Assembly: GCA_949288095.1 (NCBI GenBank)
Contig: CASEIX010000024.1
Coordinates: 1-58,339, forward strand
DNA length: 58,339 bases
Direction: 5' to 3'
DNA from: an uncultured Eubacteriales bacterium
GTDB lineage: Bacteria; Bacillota; Clostridia; TANB77; CAG-508
Position numbers and translations under genes: made by a program. Positions 5,421 through 57,218 of the stretch are shown here, piece by piece (position 1 is the first letter of the stretch; each line of letters opens with the position of its first letter). Below the pieces are notes generated by a model. That model was not told the DNA's origin, did no database searches, and worked only from the letters and a program-made list of their open reading frames with translations.

Positions 5421-7394
5421 ATGGGACAAAAGAAAAGTAAAAGCTTGTTAATAACAGTTATTGTTTTATTAATTATTATTCTACTTTTAGTAGGTGTTAT
5501 AGCATATTTATATTTTTTCACAGATATGTTTAAAAGTAATAAACAGTTATTCTTCAAATATACTTCACAGATTGTACAAAGTGAAAATGGATTTATAGAT
5601 AATCAGTTAATGCAATATTTCCAAAAAAAGAATAGTACAAGTTATGAAAATAATGGAGAAATAACATTTGATGTATCTATTCCCAATATGGAAGATGACT
5701 TAGAATTGGCGAATAATCTTAATATTACTTTCTCAGGAAAAGAAGATCCGAATAACTCAAAATCAGAAAAAGAAATTAGTTTGAACTATTCAGATAGTGT
5801 CAATTTTCCATTAACATATAGAAAAACCAATAATATAACAGGAATTCAAACACAATATATTGGAAGCAGTTTTGTAGCTGTTAGAAATGATGAAGAAATT
5901 TCAGGATTAGAAGATATCAATAATTTATTAAAATTACAAAATATAGAGTTTTCTAATGAAGAAATACAAAGTTTGAAAACAAGCTATTTTGATAATATAT
6001 TAAATACATTAGATGATAGTAAATTCTCTACACTAACAGAAGGAAATTTAACAGGATATAGATTAACATTAACAAGCGAAGAATTTAAAAATACATTGGT
6101 TCAAATCTTAAATGCTTTAAAAACAGATACCAATACAACACATAAATTAAATGAAATATTACAAGGTATAGGAATTGATACACAATTAAATGAAGATTCT
6201 ATAGATGATGTTATAGAAAGTATTAATGATTGGAAATTAAATGATAATGTTGAAATGACTGTATATGCTACAGGAGGAAATCTTACTAGAGTAGATGTAG
6301 AAAGTACAGGAACTACATTAGAAATGAATAAAGAAGGAAATGGACAAGATATCACATACACAATAACATTAAATTCTACAGAACAAGATATAAATGCTGT
6401 ATTTACAGCAAAATATGCTGGTTTAGCTTCTGATAGTGTAACGGAAACATATGAGCTAACATTAGAAGGAAAGTATGAAGAAACTAATGTGGTAGAAAAA
6501 TCAGACAATACACAATATACATTAGATATTTCAAGTGAGAGAGAAGCAATTGAGTCATTAATAACAACTGTTCAGGCAAATAAAATTGCAGTAGGAGAAG
6601 ATAGTACACAAATCAGTGATACAGATGTAGAAGAAGAATTATCATCAGGAGAAAATGAAATCTATGCAGATATGCGTTTAGAAAGAGAAACTGATACAAC
6701 ATTTCATATTACATTTGTTAGTACGGGAGATAGATTTGTCATAGATAATACAGGAGAAATTGTTGAAGAACCAGAAGAAACAACTACAAACGAAAATTCA
6801 AACAATACTTCAAATAGTAGTTCAAACAGTACTTCCGAAACAACCATCAGCCAAAATAAATATAGTGTAACAAATAATGCACAATTTAAAGATGGAGTGG
6901 AAATAGAAGACTTAACAGAAGAAAATGCTGTTATTCTAAATGATAAAAGTAATGAATATGTTAGTAATTTAATGAATGCGATACAAGAAAGAATGGTAGA
7001 AGTTAATCAAGTACAAATGGAAGAATTAGGTGTATCTGAAGATGAGAATCCAATTCAATATCTAATACCAGCATTTTTAGGGGCAAGTCAAACAAATGCG
7101 CAAATTGATGAACAAGCTGTAAATGCATTTAATGCAAAATTTGAATTATATCAAAGTACAAACACAAAGGGCGCAACAGTCAAAGGATTATTAACAACCA
7201 TTCAAAATAATAATGAAACAGAAGGAAATGATAAAATAGAAGAAATCAATATGGATGGGGAAGAATATGAAGTAAATGAGCAAAATATTACCTTATTAAA
7301 AAGTAGTATTAATGTAGATGATGCATACAGAGTAGAATTTGAAAAAGATATTAATACAGGACTCATTTATAGAGCAGTTATTAATAAACGTTAG
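5421..7394 (+). CDS. membrane-anchored hypothetical protein (657 aa)
   Basis: N-terminal TM helix (LLITVIVLLIIILLLVGVIAYLYFF) and a long polar extracytoplasmic region. The last two codons and the TAG stop lie inside the repeat element starting at 7389. Confidence 0.7.
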   Translation: MGQKKSKSLLITVIVLLIIILLLVGVIAYLYFFTDMFKSNKQLFFKYTSQIVQSENGFIDNQLMQYFQKKNSTSYENNGEITFDVSIPNMEDDLELANNLNITFSGKEDPNNSKSEKEISLNYSDSVNFPLTYRKTNNITGIQTQYIGSSFVAVRNDEEISGLEDINNLLKLQNIEFSNEEIQSLKTSYFDNILNTLDDSKFSTLTEGNLTGYRLTLTSEEFKNTLVQILNALKTDTNTTHKLNEILQGIGIDTQLNEDSIDDVIESINDWKLNDNVEMTVYATGGNLTRVDVESTGTTLEMNKEGNGQDITYTITLNSTEQDINAVFTAKYAGLASDSVTETYELTLEGKYEETNVVEKSDNTQYTLDISSEREAIESLITTVQANKIAVGEDSTQISDTDVEEELSSGENEIYADMRLERETDTTFHITFVSTGDRFVIDNTGEIVEEPEETTTNENSNNTSNSSSNSTSETTISQNKYSVTNNAQFKDGVEIEDLTEENAVILNDKSNEYVSNLMNAIQERMVEVNQVQMEELGVSEDENPIQYLIPAFLGASQTNAQIDEQAVNAFNAKFELYQSTNTKGATVKGLLTTIQNNNETEGNDKIEEINMDGEEYEVNEQNITLLKSSINVDDAYRVEFEKDINTGLIYRAVINKR

Positions 7395-7733
7395 GGATGT
7401 GCCAAAGAGGACGTGCCAAAATGGCACCAAAAGGGAGAGACCTTAGCATTATTCACCAAAGGGACCTGTGGTTATATAAAGTCACTCACAATTTTGTATA
7501 AGCTAAATTTTCATAGAATTCTAAAATAAAAAAATGTATTCATGCACTCAGACCCTCTCGTAAACGAGAGTACCGTGCAATTCATACATTTTTTTATTTA
7601 AGAATTTCTACATTCAAATTTAGATACGCAAAATCGATTCGTTTTTTTATATAACCACAGGTCCCTTTGGTGAATAATGCTAAGGTCTCTCCCTTTTGGT
7701 ACCATTTTGGAACGATTTGACACGTCCCTAACG
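7389..7733. repeat. 345-bp nested fold-back element, copy A (outer REP-like ends, 38-nt perfect middle arms, 165-nt imperfect hairpin core)
   Basis: The left end CGTTAGGGATGTGCC... is mirrored by ...CACGTCCCTAACG at the right. Arms 7443..7480 and 7646..7683 are perfectly complementary. The core is centred on CTCTCG-TAAA-CGAGAG. A second copy is at 55113..55460. Confidence 0.9.
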
Positions 7734-7823
7734 TTTCAGTCATAAATTCAATATATTAGAATATATATATTATTGAGGTAGAAGTAAAACAAATTCTAAA
7801 ATTATTGAAAAAAGGAGTGAAAA

Positions 7824-11911: not shown

Positions 11912-12516
11912 AAGGGTTGATCAATCCAGAAGATAGAAATAAAAACAACAAAAAGAAAATAGAAAATTTAGTATTTTTTGTTGTCATACTAATTGTCACA
12001 ATTGTCATCATAAATATCATATGGAATGGAGATAAAAATAGTAGTAATGAAAAGGAATTACAAAATAATACTTCAAAACAATTAGCCAATAGCAATACAT
12101 CTTCATTAGAAGCATCAAGTAATACCAGTAACCAGTTGGAAATAAAATTAGAAGAAATCTTAGCAAAAATCCAAGGAGTAGGAGAAGTAAATGTGTTCAT
12201 AAATTACTCAGAATCAAGTGAAATTGTACCAATGTATAATGAAAGTACGCAAACCAGCAATACAGAAGAAACAGACACATCAGGAGGAACAAGAACCATA
12301 GAAGAAACCGATTCACAAAAAGAAATCATATATGAAGAAAGTGATGGAGAAAAAACCGTCATTACACAGAAAGTAGTAGAACCACAAATAGAAGGAGCCA
12401 TTATTACAGCAAAAGGAGCAGGAAATGCAGAAGTAAAAACAAGCATCATCCAAGCAGTAGAAGCAGTAACAGGACTGCCAACACATAAAATACAAGTCTT
12501 TGAAATGGAACATTAG
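11893..12516 (+). CDS. spoIIIAG: stage III sporulation protein AG
   Basis: N-terminal TM helix and a C-terminal ring-building-like block VEPQIEGAIITAKGAGNAEVKTSIIQAVEAVTGLPTHKIQVF. It overlaps spoIIIAF by 19 nt. The last codons and TAG lie in the repeat at 12506. Confidence 0.75.
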   Translation: MFKDKLKGLINPEDRNKNNKKKIENLVFFVVILIVTIVIINIIWNGDKNSSNEKELQNNTSKQLANSNTSSLEASSNTSNQLEIKLEEILAKIQGVGEVNVFINYSESSEIVPMYNESTQTSNTEETDTSGGTRTIEETDSQKEIIYEESDGEKTVITQKVVEPQIEGAIITAKGAGNAEVKTSIIQAVEAVTGLPTHKIQVFEMEH

Positions 12517-12594
12517 GGACGTGCCAAATCGTTCCATTTTGAAACGATTTAACCTGTCCCCAATGTTTCAAAATGAAACAAAAGGGACAGACCT
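12506..12594 (+). repeat. REP-like palindromic unit, long form
   Basis: ATGGAACATTAGGGACGTGCCAAATCGTTCCATTTTGAAACGATTTAACCTGTCCCCAATGTTTCAAAATGAAACAAAAGGGACAGACCT. Same family as 27903, 29082, 32308 and 34987. Confidence 0.9.
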
Positions 12595-14130: not shown

Positions 14131-16473
14131 ATGAAAGAAAAAATGAAAGCAAATCAAATAACAAGAGAAAAGAAACAAAGGATTAAAAAGATAGAAACAG
14201 AAAAAGGAATTACCTTACTAGCTTTAGTGATTACCATTATAGTATTACTAATTTTAGCAGGAATTACAATAGGAGCAATAACAGGAGATAGTGGGATTTT
14301 ACAGAATGCCATAGAAGCAAAAGAGAAAACAGAAATTGCAAATGAAAGAGAAATTGTAGAAGAAGCGACTGTCCGAGCTATGGGAAATAATAAAAGAGGA
14401 AATCTAGTAAGAGATGAATTACAGAAAGAACTAGATAAACTAACAGGAGAAGGAAAAACAATTGTAACAACAGATACAGAAGAACAAGGATATTTTGTAA
14501 AGTTTGTAGACAGTCGAAGAATCTATAAGGTTAGTATAGATGGAGAAGTAGAGTATTTAGGAAAAGAAGACGAGTTAATCACACAAGCAGATATTATAGC
14601 AGATCCAGAAAGTAATACAACACCAGAATTTCTACAAGAAGTAGGACTAACTGTAAAAACACCAATCGAAATAGAAGGAGCAGAGTATTCATTAGTATAT
14701 GCATGGAACCAAGATAAAGAAAATGCACCAGAAGATGAAAAATTCTTAGAAGCAAACTTAATAGGACAAGGAAGAATCAGAACGACAACGGTATATAGTA
14801 GTGATACAGCAGGTGGAGATTATTACTTGTGGGTAAGAATTGTGGTGGGAGAGATAGAAAGAGAAGAATGCTTTGGACCATATGCGATAAAGGATCATAC
14901 AACTTTAGTAGCAACAAGTAGTGAAATAGCATCTACATCGGGATTTTTAGGAAGTGCAAATCAAGAAAAAGAATTAGTAAAAGAAGTTCAAAGAGGATTA
15001 ATAAAAAGTGTAAATATAGTAACATCATTAGAAGGACATAGTTTAAATGATGCAAATACATGGGATGTATCAGATGGAAATAAAGGAATGTATTTAGCAT
15101 GGGTAGAAAAAGATGAAAACGGATATTATGGTATTACAATAGGAGGAGAAGGTAGTGTTGTAGCAAGAAATTATTCAACATGTTTGTTCAAAAATATAGG
15201 ATATGGAGTAGAAAATCAAGAGGTAACTATTACAGGATTGGAAAATCTAGATACAGGTTTAGTAATTGATATGGTAGAAATGTTTCGCAATTGTCAAGCG
15301 AGTAATCTGAATTTAAATGGGTTTGATACTAGTAATGTAAGAAGTATGGAAAATATGTTTTATGATTGTAATGTAAGTGGATTAGATTTAAATGATTTTG
15401 ATACCAGCAATGTAACAAACATGAGTGGTATGTTTTATGATTGTTCTGCTTTAACAAATTTAAATATTGATAATTTTGATACTAGTAATGTAACGGATAT
15501 GAATGGAATGTTTCATGGTTGTGGAAATTTAACGAATTTAAATGTTAGTAGCTTTAATACTAAAAATGTAATTAATATGAATCAAATGTTTGATTATTGC
15601 AAGAGTTTAACACAATTAGATTTAAATAACTTTGATACCAGTAATGTAACGAATATGACATATATGTTCTATAATTGCACAAAATTAGTGGATTTAAACA
15701 TAGATAATTTTAATACAAGTAAAGTAACAAGTATGCAAAGAATGTTTTGGTGGTGTAGTAGTTTAAAGAGTTTAGATGTAAGTAGTTTTAACACGAGTAA
15801 TGTGACAAGTATGGAGAGAATGTTTGCTAATTGTACAACTCTAACACAATTAGATGTAAGCAATCTTCGCACAGATAATGTAAAAAGCATGAATGCAATG
15901 TTTGGTGGTTCTAGTGGATTAACAAGTCTAGATTTAACTAATTTTAAAACAGAAAATGTGACAGATATGGGAAGTATGTTTGATGGTTGCAGTAATCTAA
16001 TAAGTTTGAATGTTAGTAGTTTTAATACAAATAATGTAAAAGTAATGAGTGGAATGTTTAATAATTGTACTAAGTTGAAGAATTTGGATTTAAGTAATTT
16101 TAATACAAGTAATATAACTAATATGGAGTTAATGTTTGGAGGTTGTCATAGTTTAACAGATTTAAATATCAGTAGTTTTGATACAAGCAATGTTACTAAA
16201 ATGTTTAGAATGTTTATAAATTGTAGTAGTTTAACAGAATTAGATTTAAGCAATTTTTATACAGGTAATGTTACTGATATGGAATCCATGTTTCACGGTT
16301 GTGGTAAATTAACAAGGCTAGATATAAGAAATTTTGATATAAGTAAGGTTACAAATTCATCAATGACAATACATCTAGTACCAACAACAATAGAAATCAT
16401 AACAAACCAAAATACAAAAGATTGGATTTTAGAAAAATTTCCAGATTATACAAATATAACAGTGGTTGAATAA
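14131..16473 (+). CDS. surface protein: prepilin-like N-terminal module fused to 14 BspA/DUF285-type leucine-rich repeats
   Basis: KG|ITLLALVITIIVLLILAGITIGAITGD resembles a class III signal peptide. It is followed by 14 repeats of about 25 aa of the form F(D/N)TSNVTxMxxMFxxCxxLxxL(D/N). Confidence 0.8.
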   Translation: MKEKMKANQITREKKQRIKKIETEKGITLLALVITIIVLLILAGITIGAITGDSGILQNAIEAKEKTEIANEREIVEEATVRAMGNNKRGNLVRDELQKELDKLTGEGKTIVTTDTEEQGYFVKFVDSRRIYKVSIDGEVEYLGKEDELITQADIIADPESNTTPEFLQEVGLTVKTPIEIEGAEYSLVYAWNQDKENAPEDEKFLEANLIGQGRIRTTTVYSSDTAGGDYYLWVRIVVGEIEREECFGPYAIKDHTTLVATSSEIASTSGFLGSANQEKELVKEVQRGLIKSVNIVTSLEGHSLNDANTWDVSDGNKGMYLAWVEKDENGYYGITIGGEGSVVARNYSTCLFKNIGYGVENQEVTITGLENLDTGLVIDMVEMFRNCQASNLNLNGFDTSNVRSMENMFYDCNVSGLDLNDFDTSNVTNMSGMFYDCSALTNLNIDNFDTSNVTDMNGMFHGCGNLTNLNVSSFNTKNVINMNQMFDYCKSLTQLDLNNFDTSNVTNMTYMFYNCTKLVDLNIDNFNTSKVTSMQRMFWWCSSLKSLDVSSFNTSNVTSMERMFANCTTLTQLDVSNLRTDNVKSMNAMFGGSSGLTSLDLTNFKTENVTDMGSMFDGCSNLISLNVSSFNTNNVKVMSGMFNNCTKLKNLDLSNFNTSNITNMELMFGGCHSLTDLNISSFDTSNVTKMFRMFINCSSLTELDLSNFYTGNVTDMESMFHGCGKLTRLDIRNFDISKVTNSSMTIHLVPTTIEIITNQNTKDWILEKFPDYTNITVVE

Positions 16474-24293: not shown

Positions 24294-24309
24294 AATGAAC
24301 ATAATATAG

Positions 24310-24566
24310 AAAAACGATAGTCAGGACACGATAAATGGCATAATATCTTAAAGAGAGCCAAAGGTAGCTGAGAATTTGGTAAGTAAACTCTATTTATTAT
24401 CCCCTAACTGTTACTAAACTGAAATAAAAGTAAGTATAGTCGTAAATCTGCGTTAAAGATAAATGAGAGAACTAATTAAAAGAGAATTAATTAGTTAAAA
24501 TAGGTGGTACCGCGGAAAGTAAAGCTATTTCGTCCTAAGTTAGGATGTTAAATAGCTTTTTTTGTT
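24310..24566 (+). promoter_or_regulatory. T-box leader (tRNA-sensing riboswitch) with terminator
   Basis: AGAGAG and GCTGAGA stem I elements, and the conserved T-box AAAATAGGTGGTACCGCG at about 24497..24514. The terminator AAAGCTATTT...AAATAGCTTTTTTT spans 24521..24566. The 5' boundary is approximate. Confidence 0.8.
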
Positions 24567-24770: not shown

Positions 24771-27700
24771 ATGTACAAAAAAGTAGAATTGCAAAATGGT
24801 TTTGTCGGAATGGAAAATGATGTTGCCAAAATGTGGAAGGACAAAGACATCATAAAGAAAAGCCTTAACGGAAATCAAGGGAAAAGATATTTTACCTTTT
24901 ATGATGGACCTCCAACAGCAAATGGAAAACCACATGTAGGACATATTGAAACAAGAGTTATGAAAGACTTAATTCCAAGATACAAAGTCATGAAAGGATA
25001 CAGAGTTATCAGAAAAGCTGGATGGGATACACATGGATTACCAGTAGAACTAGAAATAGAGAAAAAACTAGGTATTTCAGGAAAACAACAAATAGAAGAA
25101 TATGGTGTAGAAAAATTTGTAAAACAATGTAAAGAAAGCGTTTTTGAATATGTTCATTTATGGGAAGAAATGACAAACAAAGTTGGATTCTGGGTAGATA
25201 TGGATGATCCATATGTAACTTATCATAATGAATATATTGAATCTGTATGGTGGGCATTAAAACAAATGTGGGAAAAAGGATTACTTTATGAAGGACATAA
25301 AGTAATGCCATATTGTCCAAGATGTGGAACAGCTTTATCATCACACGAAGTAGCACAAGGATACAAAGATGTAAAAGATTTAACATGTATTGCGAAATTT
25401 AAAGTAGTTGGAAAAGATAACACATATATCTTAGCATGGACAACAACTCCATGGACATTACCATCAAACTTAGCACTTTGTGTTAATAAATCATATGAAT
25501 ATGCTGAAGTAAAAGCCAATATTGGAACAGATGATGAACCAATATATGAAAACTATATTTTAGCAAAAGATTTATTAGAAACCGTATTAAAAGAAACACC
25601 ATATGATGTTGTAAAAACATTTAAAGGTGAAGAATTATTAGGTACAAAATATGAAAGATTAATACCATTTGGAGAAGTAGAAGGAAAAGCATTTGAAGTT
25701 ATTCATGGGGACTATGTTACATTAACAGATGGTACAGGTATTGTTCATATTGCACCTGCTTATGGTGAAGATGATAGTTATGTTGCAAAACAAAATGGTA
25801 TTACCTTTATTAATCTAGTAGACAAAGAAGGAAAATTTGTAAAAGAAGTAGAACCATGGGCTGGAAGATTTGTAAGAGATTGTAATGAGGATATTTGTAA
25901 ATGGTTAAAACAAGAAAATAAACTATTCAGCAAAGAAAAACATATGCACTCATATCCACATTGCTGGAGATGTGATACACCACTTTTATATTATCCAAAA
26001 GAAAGTTGGTTTGTTGCTATGAGTAAACTAAGAGATGAATTAGTTGAAAATAATAGCAAAGTAAACTGGTATCCAGAAACGATTAAAACAGGAAGATTTG
26101 GAAAATTCCTAGAAAATGTTATTGACTGGGGAATTTCAAGAGATAGATATTGGGGAACACCACTACCAATCTGGACTTGTGAAGATGAAAATTGTGGACA
26201 TCAAGAATGTATTGGTTCAATTGCAGAATTAAAAGAAAAAGGTATTGATGTACCAGATGATATAGAATTGCATAAACCATATATTGATAATGTATATTTG
26301 AAATGTCCAAAATGTGGCAAGAAAATGCATAGAGCAAAAGAAGTTATCGACTGTTGGTTTGACTCAGGTTCAATGCCTTTTGCACAATGGCATTATCCAT
26401 TTGAAAATAAAGAAATGTTTGACAACAATTTCCCTGCTGGATTTATTTCAGAGGCAGTTGATCAAACAAGAGGATGGTTCTATACATTAACAGCAATTGG
26501 AACCGCACTATTTAATAGAACACCATTTGAAAACTGTATCGTTTTAGGTCATGTCTTAGATGAAAAAGGACAAAAGATGTCTAAATCAAAAGGAAATGGT
26601 GTAGACCCAATGGAATTATTAAACACAGTTGGTGCAGATGCAACAAGATGGCATTTCTATACATGCAGTGCTCCATGGCTACCTACAAGATTAGGATTAG
26701 ATAATGTAAAAGAAACTCAAAGAGGATTTTTAAGCACATTATGGAATGTATATTCTTTCTATGTGTTATATGCAGAAATAGACCAATTCAATCCATTAAC
26801 ATATAAAGATTTCAAAGTAACAAATATTATGGATAAATGGATTATTTCAAAACTAAATACATTAATCAAAGATGTAGATAATAAATTAGATAGTTATGAT
26901 ATTACAGGAGCCGCATTAGAAATAGAAGAGTTTACAGACAGTTTATCAAACTGGTATGTCAGAAGAAACAGAGAAAGATTCTGGAGTCAAGAATTAACAG
27001 ATGACAAGATTGGAGCATATGTAACACTATATAAAGTATTAGTAGACTTATGCAAAGTATCAGCACCATTTGTACCATTCATGACAGAAGAAATTTATCA
27101 AAACCTAGTGGTTAGCTTAGACAAAACAGCACCTGAAAGTATCCATTTATGTTCATGGCCAGAAGTAGATGAAAATGTCATTGACAAAGACTTAGAAAAA
27201 GAAATGGACTTAGCATATAGAATTGTCAAACTAGGAAGAAGTGCAAGAAACTCTGTAAACATCAAAAACAGACAACCATTATCAGAAATGTTAATCTCAA
27301 TAGATACACTTCCAGAATATTATGCAGACATTGTAAAAGAAGAATTAAATGTCAAAGAAGTTGTATTAGGAGCAGAAATGTCTGAATATGTAAACTTCGA
27401 AATCAAACCAAATTTACCAGTCTTAGGAAAAGAATATGGTAAATTAATTCCTAGAATTAGAGAAGAAATTGCAAAGAAAAATCAAATGGACTTAGCAAAT
27501 ACAGTAAAAAATGGTGGAGTAGAATATATTGAAATCGATGACACACAAATTGGACTAAACGCAGAAAACTTACTAGTCACAATGCAAGGAAAAGAAGGAT
27601 TTGCATTTAGTGGAGAAGGAGAAATTGGTGTTGTATTAGACACAACTATCACACCAGAACTAGCAGAAGAAGGAGTCCTAAGAGAAGTCTTATCAAAAGT

Positions 27701-27914
27701 ACAAAACATGAGAAAAGACAGTGGATTTGAAGTATTAGACAGAATCAATCTATATGTAGCAGGAAATGAAAAAGTAGAAGCTGTTATCAAAAAATACGAA
27801 GAAACCATCAAACATGACACATTAGCAGACAACATCTTCTATAACAAAGAAGGAAGAGATTATACTGATACAAATATTAATGGAGAGAATTTAAAGATTG
27901 ATGTGGAACGTTAG
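24771..27914 (+). CDS. ileS: isoleucine--tRNA ligase (long, about 1,050-aa form)
   Basis: HIGH motif [17 protein letters not shown] motif KMSKSKGN, and the editing and Zn-finger regions. The last codons GTG GAA CGT TAG lie in the repeat at 27903. Confidence 0.97.
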
Positions 27915-27958
27915 GGACGTGTCAAATCGTTTCAAAATGGAACGAAAGGGACAGACCT
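27903..27958 (+). repeat. REP-like palindromic unit, short form
   Basis: GTGGAACGTTAGGGACGTGTCAAATCGTTTCAAAATGGAACGAAAGGGACAGACCT. Confidence 0.9.
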
Positions 27959-28063
27959 AAAAAACGATTTGGTTATATTGGAAATGACACAAGAATGAAT
28001 AAAAATGAAAAGGATATATCTAAAAATACAAACATTTGAGTAGGTATGTCCTTTTTATTTTAG

Positions 28064-28092
28064 TTGACAAATGGAAAAAAATGTAATATTAT
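28064..28092 (+). promoter_or_regulatory. sigma-A-type promoter upstream of the RAYT gene
   Basis: TTGACA, a 17-nt spacer, then TATTAT. Confidence 0.5.
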
Positions 28093-28163
28093 ATCAAATA
28101 GTTATATAATCAAATATAATAATTAAAGTTTTATCAAAATAATTTTATTTCAAAGGAGAATTT

Positions 28164-28919
28164 ATGTCTAGAATTGCGAGAAATCAAATGGAAACCACTT
28201 TTTTTCATAATATGACACAGGGAATAAACAAAGAATATATTTTTGAAGAAAATAGATGTAAAAAGAAATATATAGAACTATTACAAAAAGAAGTAAATGA
28301 ATTTAATATAAATTTGATTGCTTTTACTATCATGAATAACCATGCACATATATTATTGCATACAGAAAATATAAGTAACATGAGTAAATTTATGAAAACA
28401 ATTAATGAAAAATTTGCAATGTATTACAATTATATAAATAAAAGAGTAGGAATTGTTTTTAGAAATCGATATAAAAGCCAACCAATATTAAGTGAAAAGC
28501 AACTATTAAATTGTATCAGATATATTTTTAATAATCCTGTAAGAGCAAAAATTGTTTTAAATCCAGAAAAATATATTTATTCTAATTTTAAAGATTTTCA
28601 AGTTAGTCAAATATCAGAAATTTCGTTAGATAGAATTTATAAAAATATTAATAATTCGATTGATTTTCCAAATGTAAAAAATCAAAAAATAATAGCAGAA
28701 GCAGAATTTTTAGATACGTTTGAGGATACAGAAATATTTATTAAAGAATTAATAAAAAATTATGAAAAAGGAAAAGACTTAATGATAGGTAAAAATACAG
28801 AGGAAATGAAAAAGATTGTACAATATGTAAAAGAAAATACAAATATATCGCATAAGTTTTTGGCAGATATATTACATGTATCTAAAACAACAATTAGTCG
28901 ATATATAAAAGGTGAATGA
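28164..28919 (+). CDS. REP-associated tyrosine transposase (RAYT) / IS200-like Y1 HUH transposase with C-terminal HTH-like tail
   Basis: HUH motif NNHAHILLH, GIVFRNRYKSQPI block, catalytic Tyr block CIRYIFNNPVRAKIV and C-terminal LADILHVSKTTISRYIKGE. Confidence 0.8.
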   Translation: MSRIARNQMETTFFHNMTQGINKEYIFEENRCKKKYIELLQKEVNEFNINLIAFTIMNNHAHILLHTENISNMSKFMKTINEKFAMYYNYINKRVGIVFRNRYKSQPILSEKQLLNCIRYIFNNPVRAKIVLNPEKYIYSNFKDFQVSQISEISLDRIYKNINNSIDFPNVKNQKIIAEAEFLDTFEDTEIFIKELIKNYEKGKDLMIGKNTEEMKKIVQYVKENTNISHKFLADILHVSKTTISRYIKGE

Positions 28920-29081
28920 TAAAATTACAACATTATAATTTTTTATTAAACTTTATAATGTTGTAGTAAAAACAAAACAAGTGATACTTTTATGACAAAA
29001 AACTCTTAATTTGTCATAAAAAGTATTGTAAAAGAATTAATTAAATATTATAATACATAAGAATAAAAGATAAAAAGAACG

Positions 29082-29136
29082 AGGTCTGTCCCTTTCGTTT
29101 CATTTTGAAACGATTTGGCACGTCCCTAACGTTCCA
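29082..29136 (-). repeat. REP-like palindromic unit, short form (inverted)
   Basis: AGGTCTGTCCCTTTCGTTTCATTTTGAAACGATTTGGCACGTCCCTAACGTTCCA. It ends directly against the SD AAGGAGG of the next gene. Confidence 0.9.
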
Positions 29137-31873: not shown

Positions 31874-32123
31874 TATAATAAAATAAACATGAAGTATAAA
31901 ACAAAAATATGAAATAATTTTAAAGTAAACCGAAATGATTAAATATAGTATTTGATTATTAAGGTTTATTTTTTATTTTATAAAAAAACCGACTTTTAAC
32001 TGACTTTTATCTTAACTTTATATAAAATTTTTTCTGTATACAACAAGATGAAGATTCTTATATAATTCATTTAAAAGAATAAAATAACCAAAATAAGAAA
32101 AACTAAAAAATGAGGTGAATAAT

Positions 32124-32267
32124 ATGAAGGATTTAAAGAATAATATAAAAAAAGAAATAGAAATATTAGAAAACATGATAAATTTAAATAAAGAAAAAGA
32201 ACAAATAGAAAATCAAAGGAAAAAGTTAGATAAGTTATTAGAAGAATATTTAAAAGATTTAGATTAA
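32124..32267 (+). CDS. 47-aa helical mini-protein, possibly Spo0E-like
   Basis: Not in the ORF track because it is under 60 aa. SD GAGGTG lies 7 nt upstream. MKDLKNNIKKEIEILENMINLNKEKEQIENQRKKLDKLLEEYLKDLD; the KLDKLLEEY tail resembles the Spo0E SQxLDxLIxxY motif. Confidence 0.3.
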   Translation: MKDLKNNIKKEIEILENMINLNKEKEQIENQRKKLDKLLEEYLKDLD

Positions 32268-32307
32268 TAGGAAAAACAAAAGCATTGAAATATTTCAAAT
32301 AATTATG

Positions 32308-32391
32308 AGGTCTGTCCCTTTCGTTTCATTTTGGAACATTGGGGACGGGTTAAATCGTTTCAAAACGGAACGATTTGGCACGTCCCCAATG
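32308..32391 (-). repeat. REP-like palindromic unit, long form, variant terminus CATTGGGGACG (no TAG)
   Basis: AGGTCTGTCCCTTTCGTTTCATTTTGGAACATTGGGGACGGGTTAAATCGTTTCAAAACGGAACGATTTGGCACGTCCCCAATG. Confidence 0.9.
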
Positions 32392-32485
32392 TAACACTGA
32401 AATAAAAATACAATACGTACGAAAATAATTCGTTTATACACAGTTGAAAATTTGATAAGATAAACAAAAAAATAAAGGTGGTAAT

Positions 32486-32812
32486 ATGAGAAAACCAAGT
32501 ACAATTAAAATAGGAAAAAAACTTCAAACAATTAGAAAAAGTAATGGATATACACAAGAACAGTTAGCCGAAAAAGTAGAGGTATCTGTTAGATATATTA
32601 GTGATGTTGAACAAGATCGAGCAAAACCATCTTATGAAGTACTTGTTAAAATTTGTAATATTTTTAAAATTAGTTTAGACCAAGTCTTTAGTGAATATTT
32701 AACAGTAACAGAAAATAAAAGCTTAGCATATCCATTAGCAGGATATGAGAAGTTATCAGAGATAGATAAGAATACAATTGAACATTTAATTATGTATTTT
32801 AATAAAAAATAA
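32486..32812 (+). CDS. XRE-family helix-turn-helix regulator
   Basis: IGKKLQTIRKSNGYTQEQLAEKVEVSVRYISDVEQDRAKPS is a canonical HTH_3 pattern. Confidence 0.8.
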   Translation: MRKPSTIKIGKKLQTIRKSNGYTQEQLAEKVEVSVRYISDVEQDRAKPSYEVLVKICNIFKISLDQVFSEYLTVTENKSLAYPLAGYEKLSEIDKNTIEHLIMYFNKK

Positions 32813-32994
32813 AAGATATTTAGAATGAGAGCAGAAACTCATTCTTTTTTTCTTATATTTTTTGTTTTATAAAGATTTGCCTATATTATATAGACTATTT
32901 CTATATAATTGTTTTTATAAACTGGTTTTGACACAAAGATAGTTTTATTATATACTGATATCGCAATAATATAAAAATAGAGGAGTTGTCATAT

Positions 32995-34998
32995 ATGAAA
33001 GAAAATGAGACATATGAACAATGTGTAATAAAGGAAAAAAATGAAGGACAATTTAGTAGAGAAAAATACTTAAAGTTATTAAGTAAAGAATTTAAAAATA
33101 CAACAGAAGTGGCAGAAGAAATTATTAATTTAAAGGCAATACTAAATTTACCAAAGGGAACAGAAGTATTTTTAAGTGATATTCATGGAGAATATGCACC
33201 ATTTACCCATATTTTAAATAATGAAGCAGGAATTATAAAAAGTAAAATTGAAGAAACATTCGAAAATCGAATTACAGAAAAAGAACGAAATACATTAGCA
33301 ACTTTGATATATTATCCAAAAGAAAAACTAAAATTCATTAAACAAGAAACAGAAAATCTAGAAGAATGGTATGCAATTACTTTATACAGATTAGTAGAAG
33401 TAGCAAGAAAAGTAAGTTCAAAATATACAAGATCAAAAGTTAGAAAAGCGATTCATAGTGGATTTGAATATATTATAGATGAATTACTACACTCACAAGT
33501 AGATAGTGAAAAAGATAAAGAAAATTATTACAAACAAATTATTAAGACAATTATTGAGCTAGAACAAGCAGATAGCTTTATCATAGCTATATCAGACTTA
33601 ATTAAACAAATGGCGATAGACCATTTACATGTAATAGGAGACATCTTTGATAGAGGAAGATATCCAGATTTAGTATTAGATAGACTAATGAGTTTTCATA
33701 GCTTAGACATTCAGTGGGGAAATCACGATATATTATGGATGGGAGCAGGATGTGGAAATAAAGCTAATATTGCAACTGTTGTTAGAATATGTGCAAGATA
33801 TAATAATATAGGAATATTGGAAGATTCTTATGGAATAAATATGAGGCCATTATCCACATTTGCACAAAAAATATATAAAAATGATGATTGTGCAAACTTT
33901 ATGCCAAAGGTATTTGATTTTAATAAATATGACAATAGTGATAGAAATAGTATAGCCAAAATACAAAAAGCAATAACGATTATTCAATTTAAAATTGAAG
34001 GACAATTAATCAAAAAACACCCAGAATATCATTTAGACAATCGATTATTACTAGACAAAATGAATATAGAAAAAGGAACCGTAACGATAGAGGGAAAAGA
34101 ATATGAATTAAATGACAAGAATTTTCCAACAATTGATAAAAATGATCCATATGCTTTAACTTCTGAAGAAAATGAAATCATGGAAAGACTTGCAGAATCT
34201 TTTGTGCATAGTCCTAGTCTACAAAAACATTTGAAATATTTATACACAAAAGGAGAAATATATACTATATTTAATAATAATCTTTTATTCCATGGTTGTA
34301 TTCCAGTAGATGAAAATGGAAATTTAAAAGAAGTAGAATTTATGGGAAAAAGATTAAAAGGAAAAGCCTATTTTGATGAAATCAATGAAGTGGTAAATAA
34401 AGTATTTGCAACAAGACAGCCAGAATTAGTAGATATCATGTGGTTTTTATGGATTTCACCAGAATCACCATTTTTCGGAAAAGAAAAAATGGCAACATTT
34501 GAAAGCTATTTTGTAAAAGATAAAACAATGAGCAAAGAATCCAAAAGTCCCTATTATCAATATTCTGAAAATGAAGAATTTTGTGTAAAAATATTAAGAG
34601 AATTTGGATTAGAAGGAGAAGATTCTCATATCTTAAATGGACATGTTCCAGTAAAAGCAAAAGATGGAGAAAGTCCAATAAAAGCAAATGGAAAACTATT
34701 AGTGATTGATGGCGGATTTGCAAAAAGCTTTAGAGAAAAAACAGGAAATGCAGGATATATCTTAACATATAACTCAAATGGATTATTATTAAGTCAAAAT
34801 AAACCATTTGAATCTGTAGAAAAAGCAATTGTAGAAGAAACAGATATTATCAGTGAAATCATTGTCAAGAAAACAGATGTTCTTAGAAAAAGAGTAGCAG
34901 ATACAGACATAGGAGCAAAACTAAAAGGAGAAATTGCAGACTTACAAGAATTAATGAAAGCATATAAAAATGGAGAAATAAAAGAAGTGGAACGTTAG
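32995..34998 (+). CDS. fbp: fructose-1,6-bisphosphatase, class 3
   Basis: IINLKAILNLPKGTEVFLSDIHGEY, HVIGDIFDRG, WGNHD and GHVPV metallophosphoesterase motifs, and a length of about 665 aa. I prefer the ATG at 32995 over the track TTG at 32986. The last codons GTG GAA CGT TAG lie in the repeat at 34987. Confidence 0.9.
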   Translation: MKENETYEQCVIKEKNEGQFSREKYLKLLSKEFKNTTEVAEEIINLKAILNLPKGTEVFLSDIHGEYAPFTHILNNEAGIIKSKIEETFENRITEKERNTLATLIYYPKEKLKFIKQETENLEEWYAITLYRLVEVARKVSSKYTRSKVRKAIHSGFEYIIDELLHSQVDSEKDKENYYKQIIKTIIELEQADSFIIAISDLIKQMAIDHLHVIGDIFDRGRYPDLVLDRLMSFHSLDIQWGNHDILWMGAGCGNKANIATVVRICARYNNIGILEDSYGINMRPLSTFAQKIYKNDDCANFMPKVFDFNKYDNSDRNSIAKIQKAITIIQFKIEGQLIKKHPEYHLDNRLLLDKMNIEKGTVTIEGKEYELNDKNFPTIDKNDPYALTSEENEIMERLAESFVHSPSLQKHLKYLYTKGEIYTIFNNNLLFHGCIPVDENGNLKEVEFMGKRLKGKAYFDEINEVVNKVFATRQPELVDIMWFLWISPESPFFGKEKMATFESYFVKDKTMSKESKSPYYQYSENEEFCVKILREFGLEGEDSHILNGHVPVKAKDGESPIKANGKLLVIDGGFAKSFREKTGNAGYILTYNSNGLLLSQNKPFESVEKAIVEETDIISEIIVKKTDVLRKRVADTDIGAKLKGEIADLQELMKAYKNGEIKEVER

Positions 34999-35076
34999 GG
35001 ACGTGCCAAATCGTTCCGTTTTGAAACGATTTAACCCGTCCCCAATGTTCCCAAATGAAACAAAAGGGACAGACCT
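34987..35076 (+). repeat. REP-like palindromic unit, long form
   Basis: GTGGAACGTTAGGGACGTGCCAAATCGTTCCGTTTTGAAACGATTTAACCCGTCCCCAATGTTCCCAAATGAAACAAAAGGGACAGACCT. Confidence 0.9.
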
Positions 35077-39713: not shown

Positions 39714-39745
39714 ACAGACTACAAAATAGTAGTCTGTTTTGTTTT
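39714..39745 (+). terminator. rho-independent terminator of spoVS
   Basis: ACAGACTAC-AAAATA-GTAGTCTGTTTTGTTTT. Confidence 0.8.
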
Positions 39746-39858
39746 GTCCAATTGGGGACGTTTCTTTTTGGACATTTTATTTATATTTGTTACTTATAAT
39801 TTCTTTTTTAGACAACACATCAAAAAAATGTCCAAAAAGAAACGTCCCCAATTGGACA
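39746..39858. repeat. 113-bp MITE-like element with perfect 30-bp terminal inverted repeats
   Basis: TGTCCAATTGGGGACGTTTCTTTTTGGACA at 39746..39775 is matched by its exact reverse complement at 39829..39858. It shares ATTGGGGACG with the REP family. Confidence 0.85.
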
Positions 39859-54642: not shown

Positions 54643-55113
54643 ATGAGTAGAGTAAAAACATTATTGATGTATGCCTTATGGATTGTACTGTTTATTATAT
54701 TTTCTGAGTTTCTAATTAATGTTGGTTTGAATTCAACTTATAAGCCAATAGAAAGAAGAGATAATGTGTCACAAGTCAATGTATATCAAGCAGAGGCAAC
54801 ACTTGTCAATGGAAGAATAAGGGGATTAATAACTAATTCAGAAACAAATAATATAAGTAATAAATATTTAGAATTTGATTTTTATTCTGAAAGAGATGTA
54901 TTTTTAGGGAAAAAAATCATTGATATTAATGAATTAGAAGCTAATGAAATACAAAACTTTGAGATTTTATTTAAATTGGAAGATGTGGACTATTATACAG
55001 TTAGTGTATTAGATGAAAGACCTGAAGGTGAGGAAATAGAAATTCTTCCTGAAGGTTGGACAACTGCAGAAATAATAGTAGCAACTGCCTTTACATTGCT
55101 AATTTTCTGGTAG
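54643..55113 (+). CDS. membrane protein, unknown function (TM helix at each end)
   Basis: N-terminal TM helix LLMYALWIVLFIIFSEFLI and C-terminal TM helix IIVATAFTLLIFW. The stop TAG abuts the fold-back element. Confidence 0.6.
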   Translation: MSRVKTLLMYALWIVLFIIFSEFLINVGLNSTYKPIERRDNVSQVNVYQAEATLVNGRIRGLITNSETNNISNKYLEFDFYSERDVFLGKKIIDINELEANEIQNFEILFKLEDVDYYTVSVLDERPEGEEIEILPEGWTTAEIIVATAFTLLIFW

Positions 55114-55460
55114 TGGAACGTTAGGGACGTGTCAAATCGTTTCAAAATGGGTCAAAAGGGACAGACCTTAACCTGCCCACCAAGGAAACTTGTGTTTATA
55201 TAAAGTCATTCACAATTTTGTATAAGCTAAATTTTCATAGAATTCTAAAAGAAAAAGATGTATTCATGCACTCAGACCCTCTCGTAACGAGAGTACCGTG
55301 CAATTCGTACATCTTTTTCTTTAAGAATCTCTATATTCAAATTTAGATACGCAAAATTGATTCATTCTTTTATATAAACACAAGTTCCCTTGGTGGGCAG
55401 GTTAAGGTCTGTCCCTTTTGACCCATTTTGAAACGATTTGATACGTCCCTAACGTTCCAC
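55113..55460. repeat. ~348-bp nested fold-back element, copy B
   Basis: Same layered architecture and nearly identical core as 7389..7733, with a different but internally complementary middle layer. It fills the whole gap between two convergent genes. Confidence 0.9.
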
Positions 55461-57218
55461 TCCTGCCCAAAGAGTTTTATTATTTTTATAAATCACCATA
55501 CCAGGTTTTGCACCATTTGGTTTTTTTACATATTTTACTTCACAAAAGTCCACAGGTACGTTAGAAGAATTTCTAGCTTTACTATGGTAAGCTGCAATTT
55601 CTGCACATTTTAATAAAATATCATCTTTAGGAATAGGAGAACCATTTAGGACTAAAATACAATGGCTTCCATGAATATCTTTGGCATGAAACCATAAATC
55701 TGTTTTTTTTGCATATTTTAAAGTTAAATAGTCATTTTCCATATTGTTTCGACCAACTAAAAGCGTATAATCTTCAATTTTATATTTGATTGGATTAAAG
55801 TGTACATATTTATTTTTGGTTAATTTTGATTTTTTTACTTTCGGATTTTTCTTTTCTTTATATTTTTCCGTTTTTTCTTTAAAAACAGAGCTTTCAGAAA
55901 TTTCTTCAAAAACATTACTAATATCTTCTATGGTAGAACAAGCTTCTAATTCATAAATAACACTTTCTATATAATCTAAATCTTTCATTGTCTCTTCTTT
56001 TTGTTCTCCAACAATCAGCAAAGCATTTTTTAATTTATTATATTTTTTAAAAAATAGTTTGGCATTATGACTAGGAGAATAACGTTTATCCAAAGGAATC
56101 GTAATCATTTTATTATTGTCATAATAATTTTCTAAAGATACTGTATCGGTATTTTCATTTTTAATTCTATACAAATTTGCTGTGATAAGTTCACCATATA
56201 ATTTATAAGTATCCATCTGGTCACATTCTTTTAGTTTTTCATTAATGTTATATAGTCTTTTGTTATATTTTTTTAGTGTATCTAAAATCAATTTTGAAAC
56301 ACTATTTCTATATACTTTAAATTCTTCAGATGTTTCTTTATGAAAATAATAATCATCAATGAAAAAGTTAATAGAAAAAGAATCTGAAGATGAATCCTTT
56401 TTGCATAAAATATAATCTTTTACATTTCCCTTATCATCTTTTATAGTATCAAAGCCTAACTGCAAAGAATCTGTTGCATCAATCACATGTTTCATATTTG
56501 CATAAATGGTTTCTAAATTTTTATCGTCTATTTTAGATGAAGTATCTAAATGTAGTGTTTCAACAATATGACTAATAAAACTTTTACTAATTCCATTAAA
56601 AATATTAGAAATGTGTGAAGGTAGATCAGACATGTGCATCTTTTCAAAATCAAAATCAAAATCTAAATTTAATTTTAATTTGAAATCTTGAAAATTAGTA
56701 ACTTCTAAAAAATTCAACTTATTTGTAGAAGGATATACATATTTTACATGTGGGACAATTTCTCTGGTCAATTCATTATCAGAAGAAATATGTCGTAAAC
56801 TATCGATAATCACATTATTTTCATCCACTAAAATGACATTACAATGTCTTCCCATTAATTCTATAATTAATTTTTTGGTAATAATATCATCTATATCATC
56901 AAAACCCTCAAACTCAATGGTAATGACTCTTTCTAAATTGACAGAAATAATATTTTTGATACGTAATCCAATTAAATATTTTCTTAATAACATACAAAAA
57001 TTTAATGCATTTTTAGGATTCAGTTTTGTATGTGTTGTTAAATGTAATCGATAATTTTGTGCATTTGTACAAATGTTTAATGCATAATTAACACCATTTA
57101 AATAAAAGCCTAAAACAATATCATTTTTATTTGGTTCATATACTTTATCAATTCTAGCACCAATTAGTTGTTGTAATTCAGAGGTAATTGCTTTTGTCAC
57201 AATTCCATCAAATGCCAT
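55449..57218 (-). CDS. rqcH: ribosome quality-control factor RqcH (NFACT / FbpA family)
   Basis: N-terminus MAFDGIVTKAITSELQQLIGARIDKVYEP and the NFACT-R block DLWFHAKDIHGSHCIL. The last codons GTG GAA CGT TAG lie in the repeat. Confidence 0.9.
   Translation of the reverse strand: MAFDGIVTKAITSELQQLIGARIDKVYEPNKNDIVLGFYLNGVNYALNICTNAQNYRLHLTTHTKLNPKNALNFCMLLRKYLIGLRIKNIISVNLERVITIEFEGFDDIDDIITKKLIIELMGRHCNVILVDENNVIIDSLRHISSDNELTREIVPHVKYVYPSTNKLNFLEVTNFQDFKLKLNLDFDFDFEKMHMSDLPSHISNIFNGISKSFISHIVETLHLDTSSKIDDKNLETIYANMKHVIDATDSLQLGFDTIKDDKGNVKDYILCKKDSSSDSFSINFFIDDYYFHKETSEEFKVYRNSVSKLILDTLKKYNKRLYNINEKLKECDQMDTYKLYGELITANLYRIKNENTDTVSLENYYDNNKMITIPLDKRYSPSHNAKLFFKKYNKLKNALLIVGEQKEETMKDLDYIESVIYELEACSTIEDISNVFEEISESSVFKEKTEKYKEKKNPKVKKSKLTKNKYVHFNPIKYKIEDYTLLVGRNNMENDYLTLKYAKKTDLWFHAKDIHGSHCILVLNGSPIPKDDILLKCAEIAAYHSKARNSSNVPVDFCEVKYVKKPNGAKPGMVIYKNNKTLWAGVER

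Follow-up and report, generated by a model that had tools for sequence, protein, structure and literature searches.

Is a transposase gene that lies between inverted copies of a dispersed repeat still the motor of a mobile element, or has it been domesticated and kept in place? This question is raised by a locus of an uncultured Eubacteriales bacterium, found on contig CASEIX010000024.1 of assembly GCA_949288095.1, of which the stretch analysed (58,339 nucleotides) is called the window throughout. The locus carries an open reading frame (ORF 28164-28919) for an HUH protein of the single-tyrosine (Y1) kind, bracketed by two arms of a repeat. An earlier note on this DNA had likened it to a REPtron, in which the gene of a REP-associated tyrosine transposase (RAYT) is flanked by inverted repetitive extragenic palindromic (REP) sequences, and had left open whether the gene is domesticated or still mobile. 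REP/RAYT systems are a textbook example of a domesticated bacterial transposase; to our knowledge, nearly all experimental work on them concerns Proteobacteria and the short enzymes that process REPs with a GTAG tag. Here, we propose that the locus is likely a domesticated RAYT system flanked by terminal inverted repeats, that is, of the TIRYT type and probably of TnpA_REP subclass 2.1.

Results

Sequence and predicted structure of the Y1 protein

The three sequence blocks by which the ORF had first been recognised (NNHAHILLH, GIVFRNRYKS and CIRYIFNNPVRAKIV) are all present. As had been expected from them, the 251-residue protein matches both Pfam Y1_Tnp (36.2 bits, cut-off 23) and the RAYT model of NCBIfam (REP_Tyr_transpos, NF047646; 62.2 bits, E 4.7e-17), which is by far its best NCBIfam match and scores well above the IS200 model (19.8 bits, cut-off 55). 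The C-terminal tail described as resembling a helix-turn-helix (HTH) is matched at residues 216-249 by Pfam HTH_11, with 28.5 bits for a cut-off of 25. The RAYT model was also matched by 19/19 sampled family members, as the top-scoring family for each, and HTH_24 or HTH_11 was detected in six or seven of these 19. Homologues are nearly all from metagenome-assembled genomes (MAGs) of uncultured gut Clostridia. More widely, the profile search returned 1,263 clusters (50% identity) at E <= 1e-30; among the best 150 clusters, most proteins are about 250 residues long and match over their full length.

A profile of the family, compared with the sequences of the PDB, gave a single relevant match, 4ER8 (E. 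coli TnpA_REP), and no IS200-family TnpA at E <= 1. In the AlphaFold (AF2) model, whose mean predicted local distance difference test score (pLDDT) is 79.5, the N-terminal domain is well predicted, residues 169-185 form a disordered linker and the C-terminal domain (residues ~186-249) is made of four helices with a pLDDT of 80-90. In fold, too, the model is closest to 4ER8 (E 2.3e-6); the TnpA proteins of IS608 and ISDra2 rank lower. Six residues are invariant in the 19 family members: H60, H62, Y120, N124, P125 and S140. The HUH motif is H60-A-H62, and the predicted catalytic Y120 stands within Y120-IFN-N124-P125. The Y---NP motif is the signature of class 2 (TnpA_REP) as opposed to class 1 (TnpA_IS200) (Quentin et al. 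2018, PMC6006769), and the class-2 core, HUH plus Y---NP, is found in the window protein and in the 19 sampled members.

A single fixed position in related species

The Y1 gene lies directly downstream of the isoleucyl-tRNA synthetase (IleRS) gene in the loci of three species representatives, L002 (82% amino acid identity), L001 (71%) and L003 (56%), and the IleRS-Y1-ABC synteny was found in L001, L002, L003, L081-L092 and L098-L102 (56-93% amino acid identity), a position shared by at least six related species. The order IleRS-Y1-ABC ATPase-permease was seen on every contig read for the proteins P0012 (23/23; 77% identity), P0027 (22/22; 72%) and P0003 (7/7; 93%), and contigs of 29-135 kb are assembled straight across the Y1 unit. 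It had been reasoned that many identical copies of the whole 1.2-kb unit would make it an ordinary multicopy insertion sequence (IS); the unit occurs in a single context on every contig read, so it is not one.

The ratio of nonsynonymous to synonymous substitution rates (dN/dS) of the Y1 gene is 0.16-0.28, that of the IleRS, ABC ATPase and permease genes being tighter (0.03-0.10); judged from this ratio, the Y1 gene is under purifying selection. Its dS (0.19-0.58) falls inside the range of the neighbouring genes, as would be expected if it had diverged with them in place. Taken together, the fixed synteny, the purifying selection and the matching dS answer the question left open by the earlier note: the comparison of sequences is in favour of a domesticated and vertically inherited gene, immobile through the divergence of several species.

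Anatomy and covariation of the arms

The inverted repeats reported around the ORF were recovered as arms of 55 nt, 96% complementary and separated by 1123 nt. Hairpins were read directly and folded singly, differences in loop length shifting the alignment register between species. The left arm is made of module A (27904-27934), X-TTA-GGGACG-N8-X' with X = TGGAACG, followed by module B (27935-27958), AAA-X-AAA-GGGACAGACCT. It thus holds two GGGAC motifs, an outer GGGACG at 27914 and an inner GGGACAG at 27948, 34 nt apart. Across species, the consensus arm is X-nnn-GGGACG-N8-X'-loop-X-nnn-GGGACAG. Both GGGAC motifs are nearly invariant, the exception being a G-to-T change in the left arm of L098, and in 16 of 21 flanks, those of homologues at 34-41% identity included, they are spaced by 33-34 nt. 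The 6-7-nt X/X' pair is swapped completely between species, always in a compensatory manner and in both arms: TGGAACG/CGTTTCA in the window, TTGAACG/CGTTCAA in L002, TGTCCA/TGGACA in L001 and L087, and AGGGAT/ATCCCT in L003.

X' has two possible partners when the DNA is single-stranded. Pairing with the upstream X gives a hairpin with GGGACG in its loop, the sole form open to the simple hairpins that are dispersed in other genomes; pairing with the downstream X gives a tight hairpin between the two motifs, which is the minimum-energy fold in 7 of the 8 arms folded.

The repeat family in the window

The arm family is the largest dispersed repeat of the window. Three occurrences of a 39-nt core of the arm were counted at up to three mismatches, for an expectation of 0 in 100 shuffles, and the seven additional repeat ends counted by the earlier note were all located (two per fold-back element and three composite units; Table 1). 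In all, there are ten A-type modules at seven sites in the 58-kb window, and five in 20.7 kb of L081. The two fold-back elements (~350 nt) resemble miniature inverted-repeat transposable elements (MITEs): their ends, A-B / B'-A' like those of the gene-bearing unit, enclose an unrelated core that is palindromic and ~230 nt long, and the copy at 55112 folds whole as a single hairpin (-142 kcal/mol, z = -26.8). The composite units, of about 90 nt each, consist of an inverted doublet and a half-site. Their A-A' doublets, at 12504, 32308 and 34986, fold with z = -3.3 to -5.5 and have the features by which REPINs are recognised: two inverted repeat units forming one long hairpin, dispersed between genes. 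An Rfam scan found no known RNA family overlapping any repeat copy, a T-box and tRNA being its only matches.

A second, related repeat family was also observed. It appears as an inverted doublet, TGTCCAATTGGGGACGTTTCTTTTTGGACA, at window positions 39745-39858 with a 54-nt spacer, which folds at -40 kcal/mol (z = -11.6) and has a stem type also present in L006; it leads us to predict a second Y1 paralogue elsewhere in the genome.

Repeats and Y1 genes are linked across genomes

We surveyed 80 genome loci with Y1 homologues from gut Clostridia. In about 70 of them, inverted arms with a GGGAC core stand on both sides of the homologue; the arms are very different in sequence between genomes and have GGGAC(G/A) in common. 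GGGAC arms are also found at L073, in Sedimentibacter acidaminivorans DSM 24004, around a homologue of 33% identity. GGGACG occurs 212 times over the 80 loci, against 17-39 times for composition-matched hexamers, and 140 of the 212 occurrences are placed in a loop closed by a perfect stem of at least 6 bp. Such placement was found for 4.7% of random positions, for 9/212 in the reverse orientation and for one or two of the 17-39 occurrences of composition-matched hexamers.

Sixty-five dispersed hairpin copies lie away from the Y1 gene, frequently in inverted doublets with a separation of 70-100 nt. Compared with all 80 loci, 38 of them match the Y1 flank of their own locus best; the own flank yields a median score of 29 out of 40, and other loci yield 11. 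Paralogues within one MAG bear different arms (L018 and L038, L031 and L046). These comparisons support a link between repeats and gene across genomes, in which the repeats would be cognate to the Y1 gene.

A stop codon carried by the repeat

Five host genes terminate at the TAG within the repeat (GAACGTTAGGGACG), each time in the same frame (window 7392-7394, 12514-12516, 27912-27914, 34996-34998 and, on the minus strand, 55449-55451). The IleRS, FBPase and NFACT-domain genes take from it a common VER-stop ending, and in a sixth gene the TAG stop, at 55111-55113, directly abuts an element. For the IleRS gene (24771-27914), the left arm covers the last 11 nt, stop codon included, a point missed in the earlier note. 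Among the 98 TAGGGAC sites of the window and ~85 loci, 24 close an open frame at least 80 codons long, versus 1.1% of all TAG trinucleotides, and these cases span independent repeat families. L081 has lost the TAG, and a TGA contained in its variant stem, TTGAACG, serves as the stop.

Indications of movement and turnover among the repeats

Comparison of relatives reveals sites with different contents. In L087, a doublet of ~115 nt separates the stop codon of accD from the Shine-Dalgarno (SD) sequence of accA; this interval is ~12 nt long in the window and in L081. The site at the FBPase 3' end is filled in three species, with A-B in L081, A-A'-B in the window and A-A' in L087, and the copy at 32308-32398 is reduced to a decayed remnant in L098. 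No target-site duplication was visible at the element ends inspected, those of the fold-back copies included, which fits the single-strand chemistry of a Y1 enzyme rather than a DDE transposase; a DDE-type MITE origin of the elements was considered and is unlikely, since no copy is flanked by such a duplication. At the strain level, all same-species contigs (L093-L097) carry both fold-backs, and no empty site was found there for either.

Other rearrangements were seen in the same comparisons. A segment of ~1 kb (window about 31880-32965), which holds the repeat 32308-32398, a small HTH gene of XRE type (32486-32812) and a region with a 47-aa ORF, is present in L081 and L098 and absent from L001, L002 and L087. 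L098, a close relative, is without the YbaK-like and FBPase genes, with one deletion endpoint ~16 nt from the end of the repeat 34986-35076. In L087, the right arm of the Y1 unit is split by a further insertion of ~150 nt, and an unrelated fold-back of ~220 nt with AATTCTAAAAATAAGAA-type ends (11941-12161) lies between the ABC ATPase and permease genes, which in the window and in L081 overlap or directly adjoin each other.

Discussion

Comparison with known systems

The locus most resembles the TIRtrons, in which RAYT-like genes with HTH tails (TIRYTs) are flanked by long inverted repeats with the motif GGGG[AT][CG]A[CG] (GGGGWSAS), and some of whose repeats are moderately abundant families arranged as dimers (Di Nocera, De Gregorio and Rocco 2013, PMC3733652). 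Twenty of the 26 described TIRYTs were placed in TnpA_REP subclass 2.1, whose proteins are long and end in an HTH domain (Quentin et al. 2018, PMC6006769). The window locus shares with TIRYTs and subclass 2.1 a RAYT-like Y1 protein of the longer kind, the Y---NP motif, the C-terminal HTH and a low copy number. With TIRYTs it also shares long terminal inverted repeats that can form moderately abundant dispersed families, often as dimers, and the inner motif of the arms (AGGGACAG in the window, 7/8 positions; the exact GGGGACAG in L003, 8/8). It differs by its host, an uncultured gut Clostridia lineage, and by its HTH domains, which are HTH_11 and HTH_24 here and Bac_DnaA_C, HTH_23 or HTH_28 in the described proteins. 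Moreover, its arms are not plain inverted repeats: they hold the two-motif layout with its 33-34-nt spacing, and also REP-like hairpins, whereas no REP-like structures were reported beside subclass 2.1 genes (PMC6006769). On the features described, the locus is probably of the TIRtron/TIRYT type and of TnpA_REP subclass 2.1, particularly 2.1.2.

The REPtron-like reading of the earlier note is supported, with a refinement. As in the classical REPtron of E. coli (TnpA_REP, YafM, 4ER8), a single-copy and vertically inherited gene lies between inverted copies of dispersed palindromic repeats, enzyme and repeats appear to co-evolve, inverted doublets are formed (known as BIMEs, for bacterial interspersed mosaic elements, or REPINs), and 4ER8 is the best match in both sequence and fold. 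However, the repeats have no GTAG tag, their conserved motif being a GGGAC that lies next to the hairpin or in a loop; the protein, of 251 aa versus 165 aa, is extended by an HTH domain; its score lies under the NCBIfam equivalog cut-off; and the copies seen are modest in number, the benchmark for the classical system being more than 100 cognate repeats per genome. The reading as a RAYT relative with inverted cognate repeats was correct, and the refinement is that the locus fits the TIRYT type rather than the classical GTAG-REP REPtron.

It had also been stated that such systems have been studied mainly in Proteobacteria. This is fair, but Group 1 RAYTs, the widest-ranging RAYT group, were already known from Clostridia, with moderately frequent flanking 16-mers at ~12 per replicon (Bertels, Gallie and Rainey 2017, PMC5581495). 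By their description, some Group 1 RAYTs are duplicated or carried on plasmids, whereas here only a fixed chromosomal locus is seen. The kind of system is thus already known, found here in a little-studied gut Clostridia lineage, and it is not a new type.

With IS200/IS605 elements (IS608, ISDra2), the locus has in common the Y1 HUH fold (fold matches 2-30), hairpin-bearing ends and the lack of target-site duplications. It departs from them by its symmetric inverted-repeat ends, where theirs are distinct on the left and on the right, by the Y---NP motif, by its single fixed position and, as the earlier note had it, by the absence of a TnpB/IscB-type partner gene, the neighbours being IleRS and ABC ATPase genes. 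An active IS200/IS605 element was rejected on the low score of the IS200 model, the symmetric ends, the one locus and the lack of TnpB. Finally, GGGACG is the reverse complement of CGTCCC, and a kinship with the 'CGTC-tagged' REPs was considered; it is not supported, the tag of these REPs lying outside the stem (PMC3733652).

A model for the locus and the points that weigh on it

E. coli TnpA_REP binds, cleaves and rejoins single-stranded REPs through a conserved motif and a hairpin (PMC3333891, PMC3479197, PMC8266576). By analogy, the Y1 enzyme would bind repeats folded in single-stranded DNA, probably on the lagging-strand template, would recognise in them both the conserved GGGAC and the stem peculiar to the species, and would cut and rejoin DNA nearby. 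These reactions could have created, amplified and homogenised the dispersed family, from single arms to inverted doublets and the two 350-nt fold-backs, the gene itself remaining immobile. Homogenisation fits with the coordinated changes of the stem in both arms and in the dispersed copies. The HTH domain probably adds binding to double-stranded DNA at the two phased GGGAC motifs of the arms, or autoregulates the promoter-like site 28064-28092.

Several observations nevertheless weigh against this interpretation. We know of no TIRYT or subclass 2.1 enzyme with a recorded biochemical activity, and with only 13% identity to 4ER8 the catalytic steps are transposed from a distant relative. The window protein misses the equivalog cut-off of the RAYT model (80 bits). 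The HUH motif has Ala, Ser or Thr at its centre family-wide (H-[AST]-H), and the residues given for class 2 are L, V, I, F, Y and M (PMC6006769). The hairpins predicted for single arms are energetically modest (z = -1.2 to -4.6), and for 17 of the 65 dispersed copies the repeat family differs from that of the local Y1 flank. The copies seen are only the ten A-type modules of the 58-kb window; a metagenome scan for the repeat variant of the window, GGGACGTGNCAAATCGTTNCA, gave two matches only, too few for an estimate of copy number. The two fold-back copies differ by ~10% and no empty site for the window's own variant was found among the relatives compared, so that recent activity is not demonstrated.

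Could the repeats owe nothing to the Y1 enzyme? They might be spread or kept by another agent, such as a transposase, replication slippage or selection for hairpins at gene 3' ends, and merely accumulate around a Y1-HTH protein acting as a regulator or as a single-strand nuclease in replication or repair. Such a scheme would agree with the report that subclass 2.1 genes have no REP-like sequences beside them and may serve other roles (PMC6006769), and structural roles are plausible for repeats that stand at gene 3' ends and beside SDs. It accounts poorly, however, for the symmetric inverted placement in ~70 of 80 loci despite quite different arms, for the strong match of flanks and dispersed copies within a genome, for paralogues of one MAG with different arms and for catalytic residues kept invariant under purifying selection, and we regard it as unlikely.

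A still autonomous IS, in which Y1 would move the 1.2-kb unit arm-to-arm and the 350-nt fold-backs would be its internal-deletion (MITE) derivatives, is very improbable. The common ends of the fold-backs and of the gene-bearing unit would be accounted for, the unit has a promoter-like site of its own and many homologues lie on contigs of 1-3 kb, as is common for multicopy elements. Assemblies that break at the dispersed repeats on either side would, however, explain the short contigs equally well, and the long contigs do assemble across the unit. A mobile unit is also at odds with the one position occupied in at least six species and on all contigs read, with a dS similar to that of the neighbours and with the ties of the unit to host genes: it carries the promoter-like site of the host ABC operon, and its left arm gives the IleRS stop codon. 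As for two independent repeat insertions that would flank an unrelated resident gene by chance, the local frequency of the repeats lends this some colour, but bracketing by different repeats in most of 80 independent loci, own-genome matching and conservation at the orthologous locus in at least six species effectively refute it.

The domesticated TIRYT-type reading can be extended, tentatively. It is possible, although we would not count on it, that TIRYT/subclass 2.1 enzymes of gut Clostridia maintain genuine REPIN-type populations by means of a two-part code read jointly by the Y1 and HTH domains, and that their elements settle at the 3' ends of genes with such precision that the TAG serves as the stop codon of the host gene. 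The code may consist of GGGACG on a species-specific hairpin and of GGGACA 33-34 nt away, about three helical turns.

The locus and its relatives provide a compact comparative set for the HTH-bearing branch of domesticated transposases flanked by terminal inverted repeats, in which the motif is invariant, the stem covaries and the spacing is fixed, and which includes orthologues in synteny as well as sites with and without an element. With this set, the rules of recognition can be tested directly with oligonucleotides. The repeats also probably break many assemblies of gut MAGs, and they alter the ends of genes.

Surroundings of the Y1 gene and other features of the window

The window has a G+C content of 28%, and its + strand carries nearly all genes. 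The right arm abuts the SD of the ABC transporter gene as had been described, the sequence reading GTTCCA directly followed by AAGGAGG. The promoter-like site ahead of the Y1 gene is kept as an identical sequence in L002, L087 and L098; in this AT-rich DNA, promoter-like matches in the Y1 region are no more numerous than in shuffles. The inverted repeat behind the Y1 stop codon, which is without a T-run, may be a candidate transcript-end hairpin; a terminator scan of the Y1 unit called none, this repeat included.

Table 1. Coordinates of the Y1 unit and of the other copies of its repeat in the window
Feature	Position	Strand	Basis or remark
Y1 HUH gene, RAYT/TIRYT type, 251 aa	28164..28919	+	ORF list, profiles, model, alignment
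Left arm	27904..27958	+	Self-comparison, cross-species alignment; overlaps IleRS 3' end
Right arm, order B'-A' on + strand	29082..29136	-	Ends directly against ABC ATPase SD AAGGAGG
Promoter-like site TTGACA-17-TATTAT, 5' of Y1 gene	28064..28092	+	Consensus match only
SD AAGGAG, 5 nt ahead of Y1 ATG	28153..28158	+	
Inverted repeat with 18-nt arms, directly 3' of Y1 stop codon	28926..28965	+	
Promoter-like site TTGTAA-17-TATAAT within the bracketed unit, towards ABC transporter operon	29026..29054	+	Consensus match
Fold-back, MITE-like copy 1	7387..7738	.	A-B type ends, left end degenerate; core ~230 nt
Fold-back, MITE-like copy 2	55112..55461	.	A-B ends ~89-93% identical to Y1 unit arms; between two convergent genes
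Composite unit A-A'-B	12504..12594	+	REPIN-like inverted doublet and half-site; orthologous site in L081 is A-B
Composite unit B'-A-A'	32308..32398	-	Upstream of small HTH gene
Composite unit A-A'-B	34986..35076	+	3' end of FBPase gene

Upstream of the IleRS gene, a T-box leader was detected at window positions 24308-24540 (94.6 bits). Elsewhere in the window, the ORF 14131-16473 contains a tandem array at 15304-16394, made of at least 12 units of 78 nt (26 aa) that are 60-73% identical, and its orthologues in L081 and L083 match Pfam LRR_5 (BspA-type leucine-rich repeats).

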